Positions 31,623 through 35,495 are shown, counted from the stretch's first letter. The stretch: DNA of 64,000 bases from Woeseiaceae bacterium (GCA_021773135.1 JAJFKP010000017.1:50520-114519); one strand, 5' to 3'. The notes: generated by a model not told the origin, from the sequence alone. Made by a program: numbers and translations.

Positions 31623-34325
31623 ATGAGCGACAGCAAACTCGTCCTGGTGGACGGATCTTCCTACCTGTATCGCGCCTATCATGCGCTGCCCAAACTCACG
31701 AGCTCCCGCGGTGAGGCGACCGGCGCCATTCACGGCGTTCTGAATATGATTAACAAACTGGCGCAGGAGGAATCCACCGAACACCTGGTGGTGGTCTTCG
31801 ATGCACCCGGCAGGACTTTTCGCGATGACATGTATGACGACTACAAAGCCAATCGTCCGCCGATGCCGGATGATCTGCGCGAACAGGTCGAACCATTGCT
31901 CGAGGCTATTCCGGCAATGGGACTGCCGCTGCTCAGAATTGACGGCGTTGAGGCCGACGATGTCATTGGCACTTTGTGCCAGCAGGCCAGCGAATCCGGG
32001 ATGGACGTACTGGTATCCACAGGTGACAAGGATATGGCGCAACTCGTCAACGAGCGAGTTACGCTTGTCAACACAATGTCCGGATCGATTCTCGATCGGG
32101 ACGGAGTCAAGAAGAAGTTCGACGTTTTCCCGGAACAGATAATCGATTACCTTGCCCTGGTCGGTGACAGCTCCGACAACATTCCAGGCGTACCAAAAGT
32201 AGGCGCAAAAACCGCGGCCAAGTGGCTGAACCAATATTCAAGTGCCGATGCAATCGTCGCCAATGCCGCGGAAATAAAGGGCAAGGTCGGAGAAAGCCTC
32301 CGCGACAATATTGAACAGCTCAGGCTGTCACAGAAACTGGCGACGATTCGTCTGGACGTCGACCTGCCGCAAGGTCCTGCGGACCTGAAGCGCGGCCCGG
32401 CGGACACTGACACGCTAAGGTCGCTGTATAGCCGCCTTGAACTGAAACGACTGCTGACACTATTAGGCGAAACCGACGCTGACGCAACGGCGGTCGATGC
32501 TCCGAAGCCCGCAGAAAAGGGAAACTACGAGACCGTACTTGACCAGGATGGATTCGAACGCTGGCTGAAAAAAATTGACGCCGCGACGCTGACCGCAATC
32601 GACACGGAAACGACCAGCGTCAATTACATGGAAGCCGAATTGGTCGGAATTTCACTAGCCGTGGAACCGGGAGAAGCGGCCTACATACCGGTTGCCCATG
32701 ATTATCCGGGTGCGCCGGATCAGCTGAATCGTGATGCTGTCCTGGCCGCGCTGAAAACATTTCTCGAGAACCCGGACAAGAAGAAAGTCGGTCACCACCT
32801 GAAGTACGACGCGCACATTTTTGCCCGCTACGACATCGCAATGCGGGGCATGGCTTTCGATTCTATGCTGGAGTCTTACGTTCTCAATAGTGTCGCAACG
32901 CGGCATGATATGGATTCTGTCGCTCGGTATTACCTGAACGTCGACACCATTCACTACGAGGACGTTGCCGGCAAAGGCGCCAAGCAGCTCACCTTCAATC
33001 AGGTTGATCTCGAACAGGCAGCTCCGTACGCAGCAGAAGATGCCGACATTACCCTGAAGTTGCACAACCAGCTGTGGGGCGAACTGGAAAAGACACCTAC
33101 ACTGCGTTCGGTCTATGCAGAAATCGAGCAGCCTCTGGTGCCGGTCTTGCTGGCAATGGAGGAAGCCGGTGTTTTGATCGACAAGGGCATGCTGAAGAAG
33201 CAGAGCAGCGAGCTGGCTACAACCATGCAGAGCCTGGAGCAAGAGGCGCACGAACTTGCAGGTGGACCGTTTAATCTCGGCTCGCCCAAGCAGTTGCAGG
33301 AAATCCTGTTTGGCCAGCTCGGCTTGCCGGTCATTCGCAAAACGCCGAAAGGGCAGCCCTCAACCGCAGAAGATGTTCTGCAGGAGTTGGCGAATGAATT
33401 TGATCTGCCGCGGGTGATACTTGAGTATCGCAGCGTCAGCAAACTGAAAAGCACCTATACAGATAAACTACCAAAACAGGTTGCGGCGCACACCGGTCGC
33501 GTCCACACGTCTTATCACCAGGCGGTAGCCGCAACAGGGCGACTCTCGTCAACGGACCCGAATTTACAGAATATCCCGATTCGCACTCCCGAGGGTCGCC
33601 GGATCCGGCAGGCATTTATTCCGCCGGACGGCAAGGTTCTGCTCGCGGCGGACTATTCTCAAATTGAATTGCGCATCATGGCGCACCTGTCCGGCGATGA
33701 GGGCCTCGTTAAAGCATTTACGGAAGACCTGGATGTGCACAGCGCGACGGCCGCGGAAGTTTTCGGGCTCAAAGCCGACGCGGTGACCGCCGATCATCGC
33801 CGCTCCGCCAAGGCCATCAATTTCGGGCTGATGTACGGCATGTCCGCGTTCGGCCTAGGCAAGCAACTCGGCATTGGCCGCGGGCAGGCACAGGAGTATG
33901 TCGATCTGTATTTTGACCGGTATCCGGGCGTGCGCAAGTTTATGGATAATATTCGCGAGCAGGCGCGCGCGGCAGGCTTTGTAGAAACGGAGTTCGGGCG
34001 CCGCCTGTACCTGCCGGACATCAACGCCCGTAATGCACAACGAAGACAGTATGCAGAACGCAGCGCGATCAACGCGCCGATGCAGGGTACCGCGGCGGAT
34101 ATTATCAAGCGGGCAATGGTTACGGTGCAGGACTGGCTGCACAGCGATAAAGTGCCGGCCCGAATGATCATGCAGGTACACGATGAACTGGTTCTCGAGG
34201 TAGACGAAGCCGCTGTGAATTCGGTCCGCGATGAAGTTGTCAGACTGATGAGTTCGGCAGCCGATCTTTCTGTGCCGCTGAAGGTTGATGCGGGTGTCGG
34301 CGAGAACTGGGACCAGGCCCACTGA
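31623..34325 (+). CDS. polA: DNA polymerase I
   Basis: 5' nuclease start LVLVDGSSYLYRAYHALP, 3'-5' exo block (IDTETTS), polymerase motifs DYSQIELR and QVHDELV. 900 aa. Confidence 0.97.
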   Translation: MSDSKLVLVDGSSYLYRAYHALPKLTSSRGEATGAIHGVLNMINKLAQEESTEHLVVVFDAPGRTFRDDMYDDYKANRPPMPDDLREQVEPLLEAIPAMGLPLLRIDGVEADDVIGTLCQQASESGMDVLVSTGDKDMAQLVNERVTLVNTMSGSILDRDGVKKKFDVFPEQIIDYLALVGDSSDNIPGVPKVGAKTAAKWLNQYSSADAIVANAAEIKGKVGESLRDNIEQLRLSQKLATIRLDVDLPQGPADLKRGPADTDTLRSLYSRLELKRLLTLLGETDADATAVDAPKPAEKGNYETVLDQDGFERWLKKIDAATLTAIDTETTSVNYMEAELVGISLAVEPGEAAYIPVAHDYPGAPDQLNRDAVLAALKTFLENPDKKKVGHHLKYDAHIFARYDIAMRGMAFDSMLESYVLNSVATRHDMDSVARYYLNVDTIHYEDVAGKGAKQLTFNQVDLEQAAPYAAEDADITLKLHNQLWGELEKTPTLRSVYAEIEQPLVPVLLAMEEAGVLIDKGMLKKQSSELATTMQSLEQEAHELAGGPFNLGSPKQLQEILFGQLGLPVIRKTPKGQPSTAEDVLQELANEFDLPRVILEYRSVSKLKSTYTDKLPKQVAAHTGRVHTSYHQAVAATGRLSSTDPNLQNIPIRTPEGRRIRQAFIPPDGKVLLAADYSQIELRIMAHLSGDEGLVKAFTEDLDVHSATAAEVFGLKADAVTADHRRSAKAINFGLMYGMSAFGLGKQLGIGRGQAQEYVDLYFDRYPGVRKFMDNIREQARAAGFVETEFGRRLYLPDINARNAQRRQYAERSAINAPMQGTAADIIKRAMVTVQDWLHSDKVPARMIMQVHDELVLEVDEAAVNSVRDEVVRLMSSAADLSVPLKVDAGVGENWDQAH

Positions 34326-34508
34326 CTCCTGCCCAAAGGCCGGCGACCCCATTGACCGGCAGCCGCTACGAGTTTGCTGCTGGCCTTTCCACAGGAACCG
34401 CTCGCCCCGCCGGCTACTCGACGGTGTTTTGGACAACCTGGCGTCGCGCACCCGCCGATGGTAGGCACCGCTTAATACTACATTATTTTCAATAGGTTAT
34501 AAGCCAGG

Positions 34509-34536
34509 GGAACTCCTCGGGCCATTATTGTTCCAA
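34509..34536 (+). promoter_or_regulatory. Candidate RpoE/AlgU (sigma-E/sigma-22) type promoter
   Basis: GGAACTC (34509-34515), 16 nt spacer, TCCAA (34532-34536), against the consensus GGAACTT-N16-TCnAA. An AT-rich tract lies immediately upstream (34480-34505). Confidence 0.5.
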
Positions 34537-34542
34537 TTCTTC

Positions 34543-34657
34543 GAGTGCGTTAGTCACTTGTCTGTTTACCTCCCTAAGCAGACTTGCAACCCGGTAACCC
34601 CAAGCCGGTTGCTAATGCTAGACCCCGACTGTCGCAAGACACGTCGGGGTTTTTTTG
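34543..34657 (+). ncRNA. Candidate sRNA of about 115 nt, positional analogue of Spot 42 (spf) / ErsA between polA and engB
   Basis: Bounded by the sigma-E-like promoter and an intrinsic terminator. Three hairpins: 34560-34583, 34586-34612 and 34622-34650. The first loop is UUUACCUCCCUAAG. The 5' end is only inferred from promoter spacing. Confidence 0.5.
34622..34657 (+). terminator. Rho-independent terminator
   Basis: ACCCCGACTGTC-GCAA-GACA(C)GTCGGGGT stem with a GNRA loop, followed by a T7 run. Confidence 0.8.
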
Positions 34658-34884
34658 TGCACGGACGCACTTATGTCGCGACGCACAGGGATGTGCGAGA
34701 GCGACGTTTATACAGGGATGTATTGATGTCGCGACCAAATCGCCGGGAGCGATTTTGGACAACACCACAGGTGTTGGCCCGAGGGGCAGCGGGCAGGATA
34801 GTCCGCTGCAACGACAGGACGTCCGGGAGCGGCGCTTGTGCAGGGACGCACTGATGCCGGGACAAAGTCGCCGGGCGCGACGTT
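34657..34884. repeat. REP-like intergenic repeat family: two full 44-nt units (34710-34753 and 34838-34881) plus a degenerate copy (34657-34708)
   Basis: Each unit has hairpin A (4-bp stem, loop AGGGAY), then TGATGYCGSGAC, then hairpin B (5-bp stem, loop CGGGM). The units are 33/44 identical by hand alignment, with 3 compensatory base-pair changes. Confidence 0.7.
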
Positions 34885-34898
34885 ATGCAAAATCGAAA

Positions 34899-35495
34899 CT
34901 AGGCCGCAGCACCGTCGCCTAACAATTTTTCCAGTGCTTCCCGGGCTTCCTCGACGCCCTGCCGATTAAGCGCGGAAAACAACTGTACGCTTGCGCTGCT
35001 GCCAAGCTCCTTCCTGACCGTAAGAAGAGCGGTAGACGCCTGACCCCGCTTTAGCTTGTCGGCCTTGGTCAGCAATACGTGAACCGGCAGTTCAACAGAG
35101 GCGGCGAACGCCAGCATTTGCCGGTCGAATTCCTGCAGTTGACGCCTGATATCAACGACCAGAATCAGGCCATTGAGACAGTCCCGCTGCTCGAAATAGC
35201 CCTGCAACAGGCGGCCCCAGTGTTCCCGCACGGCATCTGCTACCCAGGCAAAGCCGTATCCGGGCAAATCCACCAGTCGTTGTCCGGGCCGCAATTCGAA
35301 GAAGTTGACCAGCTGGGTCCTGCCCGGCGTTTTGCTGGTCCTGGCAAACTGGCGGCGATTGACTATGACGTTGATGGCGCTCGATTTACCGGCATTGGAG
35401 CGCCCGGCTACGGCAACCTCGGCGCCCTCATCCGGCAGGAACTGAGCTGCGGAATTGGCGCTCATAATGAACTTTGCGTCTGGGAATTGAGACAT
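34899..35495 (-). CDS. engB: Ribosome biogenesis GTP-binding protein EngB/YihA
   Basis: GRSNAGKSSAIN (G1), TPGRTQ, DLPGYG (G3), TKADK (G4). Start taken at MSQFPDAKF. The ORF is open to 35567. Confidence 0.9.
   Translation of the reverse strand: MSQFPDAKFIMSANSAAQFLPDEGAEVAVAGRSNAGKSSAINVIVNRRQFARTSKTPGRTQLVNFFELRPGQRLVDLPGYGFAWVADAVREHWGRLLQGYFEQRDCLNGLILVVDIRRQLQEFDRQMLAFAASVELPVHVLLTKADKLKRGQASTALLTVRKELGSSASVQLFSALNRQGVEEAREALEKLLGDGAAA

Follow-up and report, generated by a model that had tools for sequence, protein, structure and literature searches.

The gap between polA and engB in a Woeseiaceae bacterium very probably holds a gene for a regulatory RNA of about 115 bases with a promoter of the sigma-E type. 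On the evidence of sequence comparison, this RNA is a divergent, sub-threshold member of a family that is already described and widespread, and not a new kind of element. We read positions 34543-34657 on the + strand as a trans-acting small RNA of about 115 nt that would be induced by sigma-E and whose C-rich loops would repress target mRNAs, a reading to which we assign a probability of roughly 0.7. All coordinates refer to the window, that is, the whole stretch of 64,000 nucleotides that was analysed (GCA_021773135.1 JAJFKP010000017.1:50520-114519), which comes from a genome of 4.55 Mb with 55.2% G+C.

The probable gene and its predicted fold

The gap measures 573 bp, from the polA stop at 34325 to the engB stop codon, which begins at 34899. 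The flanking open reading frames matched the NCBIfam models for DNA polymerase I (1212 bits) and YihA/YsxC-EngB (222 bits), and an exact look-up of the EngB protein of the window returned no record. All elements of the gene lie on the + strand. An A+T-rich tract (34465-34508; 64% A+T compared to 45% for the genome), a possible UP element in which a short ATCAA-like motif is kept within the genus, directly precedes a -35 box of the sigma-E (ECF02/RpoE/AlgU) type, GGAACTC (34509-34515), assigned from its sequence and its conservation in homologues, and the -10 box TCCAA (34532-34536) follows 16 nt past this heptamer. From the onset of conservation and from covariation, transcription is predicted to start at about G34543 with a 5' hairpin, GAGUG-CGUUAGU-CACUU (34543-34559). 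Indeed, in the alignment the conservation of the transcribed part sets in abruptly at GAGTG, 6 nt past the -10 box.

Two stem-loops supported by covariation and loop conservation come next. The first (34560-34583) carries the loop CCUCCC (34569-34574), which we propose as the main seed, and as the U-A pairs that close this loop are weak, UUACCUCCCUAA would effectively be exposed. The second (34586-34612) presents AACCCCAA in its loop (34596-34603), a proposed second seed. A single-stranded A/U-rich linker of variable sequence, UAAUGCU (34613-34619), which is unpaired in both the minimum free energy and the consensus folds, leads to a Rho-independent terminator (34620-34657) with a 14-pair stem (34620-34652), a GCAA loop and a U7 tail (34650-34656), recognised from the fold and from covariation. 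A check of the sequence placed every feature listed in the first-pass annotation where it had been reported. That annotation had described a three-hairpin RNA, and while the hairpins it named and the terminator are present, its count was wrong: there are four helices, the 5' hairpin at 34543-34559 having been overlooked.

The predicted fold of the 115-nt RNA has a free energy of -49.5 kcal/mol (z = -6.05), and none of 200 shuffled sequences folded as well. Using sequences from the same genus, RNAalifold returned the four helices, with compensatory changes in 14 of their 32 pairs; in a larger alignment, with 77 sequences drawn from dozens of families, such changes appeared in every one of the 32 pairs. 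The proportion of paired cells in this larger alignment was 92% and dropped to 74% on shuffling and to 29-50% when the pairing partners were slid, figures that have to be read with the fact that this alignment was fitted to the model and favours the structure. At the level of single helices, all five pairs of the 5' hairpin are compensatory (e.g. GAGUG/CACUC in some sequences and GAGCG/CGCUC in others) and 98% of its cells are paired, the stems of stem-loops 1 and 2 covary at nine of nine and at nine pairs, respectively, and the terminator stem covaries strongly above a CCCCG/CGGGG base that is 96-99% conserved. The loops behave differently from the stems. With identities of 97-100% for CUCCC in loop 1 and 94-95% for CCCC in loop 2, they contain the most conserved unpaired bases among the 77 sequences, which were, it should be said, chosen by a model that rewards those motifs. 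The prominence given to the CCUCCC loop in the earlier description was thus well placed.

Several further observations concern the surroundings of the RNA. We found no other terminator between the polA stop and the terminator of the RNA, and no intrinsic terminator belonging to polA itself can be recognised ahead of the RNA gene; read-through from polA across 34326-34508 may therefore stop at the RNA terminator and could give a processed form of the RNA. A small-protein reading was rejected, as the sole frame starting with AUG (from 34615) crosses the terminator and its start region is unconserved. The 240 bp from the RNA terminator to the engB stop (34655-34895) carry a small family of hairpin repeats, with a 28-nt unit present three times and a 64-nt unit present twice, which has kin on other contigs of the same genome (C24, C52 and C34). 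The start of the repeat is also visible past the RNA terminator in the two closest relatives. Since most other relatives have no more than 2-60 nt separating the terminator from engB, these repeats look like a REP/MITE-like insertion.

Distribution and relatives of the RNA

By BLAST, the stretch encoding the RNA was found in 20 of 22 genomes of the same genus. We built a covariance model from 21 Woeseiaceae sequences (R1) and a broader one from the 77 sequences (R2). At the level of the order, R1 matched 199 of 301 genomes, which represent 61 of 73 genera and mostly hold a single copy; among 395 good-quality genomes from the GTDB class Gammaproteobacteria, 136 gave a match (106 of 309 genera). 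Nearly all Woeseiaceae carry the RNA once per genome. Of 47 loci in the order, 40 show the arrangement in which polA and the RNA point in the same direction and engB converges on them, and among 28 loci from the class, polA or engB lay beside the RNA at 25 and both did at 16. The earlier proposal of a stand-alone small RNA gene in this gap is therefore borne out by its conservation across relatives, as is the expectation for the alignment of the gap, in which the boxes are fixed and the hairpins covary.

The copy number and the orientation of the RNA vary in places. Tandem duplicates occur in the polA-engB region of several gammaproteobacterial lineages (two copies at L064 and L123, three at L121), and further multicopy genomes carry four (G673) or three copies (G351, G533 and G665). 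At four loci (L048, L069, L092 and L131) the RNA is inverted within the gap, so that it is co-directional with engB and convergent with polA.

Given this location, the hairpins might act mainly in cis, as a 3' untranslated region of polA or engB with a shared terminator, or be processed from the polA transcript. The lack of a separate terminator from the polA stop to the RNA would fit such a role, as would the facts that the RNA is almost always found directly next to the 3' ends of polA and engB and that the distance from its terminator to the engB stop is only 2-60 nt in most relatives. However, the promoter boxes keep a fixed distance to the RNA start while the distance to polA ranges from 39 to over 600 nt, and in some lineages the RNA is inverted in the gap or kept without a nearby polA. 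Furthermore, the loop sequence is kept while the stems covary, a combination that a simple terminator does not need, and homologues have been detected as discrete RNAs by northern blot or RACE (PMC5688073, PMC3771888). We therefore regard a mainly cis-acting role as most improbable and continue with the reading of a trans-acting small RNA.

The first-pass annotation had proposed a homologue of Spot 42 or ErsA. It correctly placed spf of E. coli and ErsA of Pseudomonas in this polA-engB gap, but neither the Spot_42 (RF00021) nor the Pseudomon-1/ErsA (RF01719) model of Rfam matched the window at E <= 10, ErsA is distant at best, and the nearest relatives are two families absent from that annotation, namely anti-hemB/ncS04 (RF02837) and sX13 (RF02232). 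Anti-hemB was put forward as a beta-proteobacterial non-coding RNA (Weinberg 2007, PMC1950547) and is the same as Bc7 or ncS04 of Burkholderia cenocepacia J2315 (PMC5688073), a 105-nt RNA that was confirmed by RACE and northern blot and that co-purifies with Hfq (PMC5688073, PMC4603805).

At the Rfam gathering thresholds nothing in the whole window matched. In a permissive search, the anti-hemB model matched over its full length (positions 1-81) the stretch 34559-34658, from hairpin 1 to the terminator, with 27.6 bits (E = 2.4e-4), below its gathering score of 49.5 bits, and this was the best anti-hemB match of the whole genome, with the CCUCCCU loop of the model aligned onto stem-loop 1. In eight other genomes, R1/R2 matches coincided with anti-hemB matches of 49.8-65.8 bits (loci L079, L082, L094, L097, L099, L105, L106 and L128), and this coincidence with matches above the threshold indicates that the RNA of the window is a divergent anti-hemB member. 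Its layout follows that of the family: a first hairpin whose loop reads CCUCCCU, then another hairpin, and a Rho-independent terminator at the end, all within a similar length of about 105-115 nt and convergent with the neighbouring gene; engB also adjoins the above-threshold anti-hemB matches examined. In contrast to the RNA described here, the Rfam model has no 5' hairpin, and the family was described as beta-proteobacterial whereas Woeseiaceae are gammaproteobacteria. The literature searched contained no report of a sigma-E promoter for anti-hemB/ncS04. One of the coincident copies, L128 (G598:C1:3732023-3732134; 65.8 bits, well above the Rfam threshold), has neither polA nor engB within 3 kb and no upstream GAAC-N18-TC, and so looks like a relocated copy with another promoter.

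The RNA is also clearly related to sX13 of Xanthomonas, as judged from covariance-model alignments. Both R1 (22.5 bits) and R2 (35.4 bits, E = 1.7e-7) aligned sX13 over its full length, and the sX13 and R1 models match the same intermediate sequences in six genomes; the sX13 model itself gave no match in the gap at E <= 10 and none in the genome of the window at E <= 0.001. Like the RNA described here, sX13 adjoins polA, and its 5' hairpin is followed by stem-loops that carry C-rich sequence at their apices; the CCCCAAG loop of stem-loop 2 is the same in both. It differs in having three C-rich loops with apical 4C/5C motifs, including that of the terminator, whereas the RNA of the window has two (CCUCCC and CCCC) and a GCAA terminator loop, in an upstream region that is not a clear sigma-E promoter, and in its neighbourhood, since engB was not found within 1.5 kb at three Xanthomonadaceae loci.

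The sequence of ErsA was obtained from metagenome contigs by means of a published primer, and it corresponds to Rfam RF01719, the model of which scores true ErsA at 137.8 bits. R2 detected it weakly but significantly (25.6 bits, E = 4e-5) and R1 did not detect it. ErsA is thus probably a relative of the RNA, at best a distant one, that has lost the CCUCCC hairpin. ErsA of P. aeruginosa (PA5492.1) shares the gene order with convergent engB, and its promoter, GAACTT-N16-TCAGA, is of the same type and stops 6-7 nt short of the 5' end. It likewise has a 5' hairpin, and its linker and terminator closely resemble those of other gammaproteobacterial members. The place of the CCUCCC hairpin is taken in ErsA, however, by an unstructured U-rich stretch that binds the targets (nt 26-56; PMC5819304), and the C-rich motif of ErsA sits in the terminator loop. 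Spot 42 has the same position in E. coli (polA-spf-yihA(engB)) and a similar size, but it differs in its sigma-70 promoter, which is repressed by CRP, in having no C-rich loops and in encoding the small protein SpfP. R2 gave 14.5 bits on E. coli spf (E = 0.023), which is not significant and probably due to the terminator, and by this comparison Spot 42 has no significant relation to the RNA of the window.

Promoter conservation and the choice of sigma factor

The hexamer GGAACT is invariant in 22 homologues from the genus and the family, with a variable spacer. Beyond these, the pattern GAAC-N18/19-TCnnA was found upstream of 68 of the 77 homologues, compared to 3 of 303 control windows, and it ends 5-8 nt (most commonly 6 nt) before the 5' end of the RNA in 63 of the 68 that carry it. 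The resulting consensus, GAACT(T/C)(T/A) ... (G/C)TC(T/A)(A/T)A, is of the RpoE/AlgU type. The sigma-E/AlgU-type promoter proposed earlier is, indeed, the best-conserved feature upstream of the RNA. Taken by itself the motif is not significant, as the exact promoter pattern occurs 15 times in the genome where about 13 occurrences are expected by chance, and the case consequently rests on comparative evidence, that is, on conservation at a fixed distance from the 5' end of the RNA across many families. A relaxed genome-wide scan picked up both rpoE and the RNA, yet yielded no clear regulon.

Outside the window (contig C39:77041-77692), the genome has a locus in which the gene for an RpoE orthologue (60% identical) precedes genes resembling rseA, rseB and rseC, and then lepA. 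Upstream of this rpoE lies GAACTT-N16-TCTAT, and among 29 rpoE loci from 14 Woeseiaceae genera, 28 keep the motif GAACTT-N16-TCTA(T/C). In two reduced Woeseiaceae genomes of the genus g26 (G240 and G727; 1.8-2.0 Mb and 93-99% complete), searches at E <= 1e-40 returned no RpoE orthologue, and the small RNA gave no significant match either, a co-absence seen in a small sample of two genomes and confounded by genome reduction. We infer from these comparisons that the RNA is transcribed from a sigma-E type promoter.

A real RNA could also be read by another ECF sigma factor or by sigma-70 instead of RpoE. At least 10 other ECF-type sigma paralogues are encoded in the genome and might read similar boxes, the AAC element at -35 is common to many ECF groups, and the exact motif is not enriched genome-wide. 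Furthermore, the anti-hemB copy L128, above the Rfam threshold and away from polA and engB, lacks such a promoter, and ncS04 appears constitutive in B. cenocepacia, its level being unchanged in seven conditions including osmotic stress and low pH, none of them envelope-specific (PMC5688073). Against these points, the boxes and their spacing match both the rpoE promoter of the lineage and the promoter of ErsA, for which dependence on sigma-22 was shown by experiment (PMC13613067). The motif is also kept over dozens of families whose sets of accessory ECF factors must differ, the two reduced genomes lack both rpoE and the RNA, and no sigma-70-like promoter was detected in the polA-engB gap. On balance, we consider it unlikely that a sigma factor other than RpoE reads this promoter, and RpoE is the factor assumed in what follows.

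Proposed action and wider family

Under envelope stress, RpoE would be freed from the anti-sigma factor RseA, recognise GGAACTC-N16-TCCAA (34509-34536) and start transcription near G34543; transcription would run to the intrinsic terminator, with the RNA ending at about 34655. The RNA would then fold into the 5' hairpin, two stem-loops showing CCUCCC and CCCC, and the terminator. Its C-rich loops could pair with G-rich tracts or Shine-Dalgarno sites near start codons and so block the entry of ribosomes, and the resulting drop in translation of the target mRNAs would form a repressing arm of the envelope-stress response, as for MicA, RybB, MicL and ErsA. In enterobacteria and Vibrio, sigma-E activates small RNAs that lower the synthesis of envelope proteins (MicA, RybB, MicL, VrrA and MicV). 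The regulatory logic proposed here is the same, but these RNAs show no similarity in sequence or structure to the RNA of the window, lie at other loci and use linear seeds at the 5' end and not C-rich hairpin loops. As sigma-E would drive the RNA, its targets are, by analogy, probably the mRNAs of exported and outer-membrane proteins.

For sX13, experiments have shown that repression needs the C-rich loops together with G-rich mRNA motifs near start codons and is independent of Hfq (Schmidtke 2013, PMC3771888). Hfq may assist the RNA described here, as the A/U-rich linker and the U tail could form an Hfq-binding module, and an hfq gene is present in the genome; dependence on Hfq within this RNA family is uncertain because sX13 works without it.

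Computational prediction gave no specific targets. The CCUCCC loop had been put forward as a basis for target prediction in the first-pass annotation; the duplex energies of the loops of the RNA against 6,461 putative start regions of one genome were no better than those of shuffled loops. A listing of the longest complements revealed no obvious target, and the mRNA of hfq, a target of sX13, showed no complementarity to the RNA here. Apart from these searches, we observed that among open reading frames of at least 150 aa, 37.7% of those with a G-run ribosome-binding site had signal-peptide-like N-termini, compared to 25.5% of those with other strong Shine-Dalgarno sequences (p = 0.016) and 17.2% of the remaining ones, an enrichment that is a hint only, since it stems from home-made calls of open reading frames and a heuristic signal-peptide test. 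Several of the frames with a G-run site resemble TonB-dependent receptors.

Another way of acting would be for the RNA mainly to bind or sequester a protein or the ribosome through its C-rich loops, which resemble the anti-Shine-Dalgarno sequence, and not to address specific mRNAs. In keeping with this, short and near-invariant loops are identical in very distant lineages, which would be unusual if the targets differ, and the target prediction here was unspecific; to our knowledge, however, no C-rich-RNA-binding regulator is known in such bacteria. The work on sX13 bears on both sides of the matter: compensatory mutations failed to restore regulation and its authors suggested an unknown factor acting on G-rich motifs, yet repression requires the G-rich motif of the mRNA (PMC3771888). 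ErsA, moreover, pairs directly with the mRNAs of algC and amrZ (PMC5819304). Sequestration as the main function therefore seems very unlikely to us, and repression of target mRNAs through the C-rich loops is the action we favour.

Rfam and the literature would, on a reading of all these RNAs as a single lineage, be treating as three unrelated RNAs what are in fact relatives. In this reading, one ancient sigma-E-driven small RNA gene between polA and engB predates the split of gamma- and beta-proteobacteria, and anti-hemB/ncS04, sX13 and ErsA are its descendants, a proposition to which we give an even chance. Spot 42 might then be a replacement with a swapped promoter, and the alpha-r7 RNAs found at polA in alpha-proteobacteria might be further kin. 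In the literature searched, no paper mentions sX13 and ErsA together, anti-hemB, sX13 and ErsA were not found described as one sigma-E-linked polA-engB lineage, and queries with the loop sequence returned unrelated papers only.

About one third of the sampled gammaproteobacterial genomes have, between polA and engB, an RNA that displays CCUCCC and CCCC loops and is preceded by a sigma-E-type promoter. This pattern joins three RNAs that have so far been treated separately, in Burkholderia, Xanthomonas and Pseudomonas. The relationship, once confirmed, would allow results on G-rich targeting from sX13 and on envelope-stress control from ErsA to be transferred across the family, and the Rfam families could be merged or placed in one clan. 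If the single lineage holds, no known sigma-E-dependent regulatory RNA would be more widespread, and its invariant CCUCCC and CCCC loops would act on the G-rich ribosome-binding sites of envelope-protein mRNAs. Woeseiaceae are abundant bacteria of marine sediments, and we know of no small RNA that has been studied in them. The genome analysed here gains a so far unannotated regulatory RNA gene, which would be the first predicted non-coding member of its sigma-E regulon.
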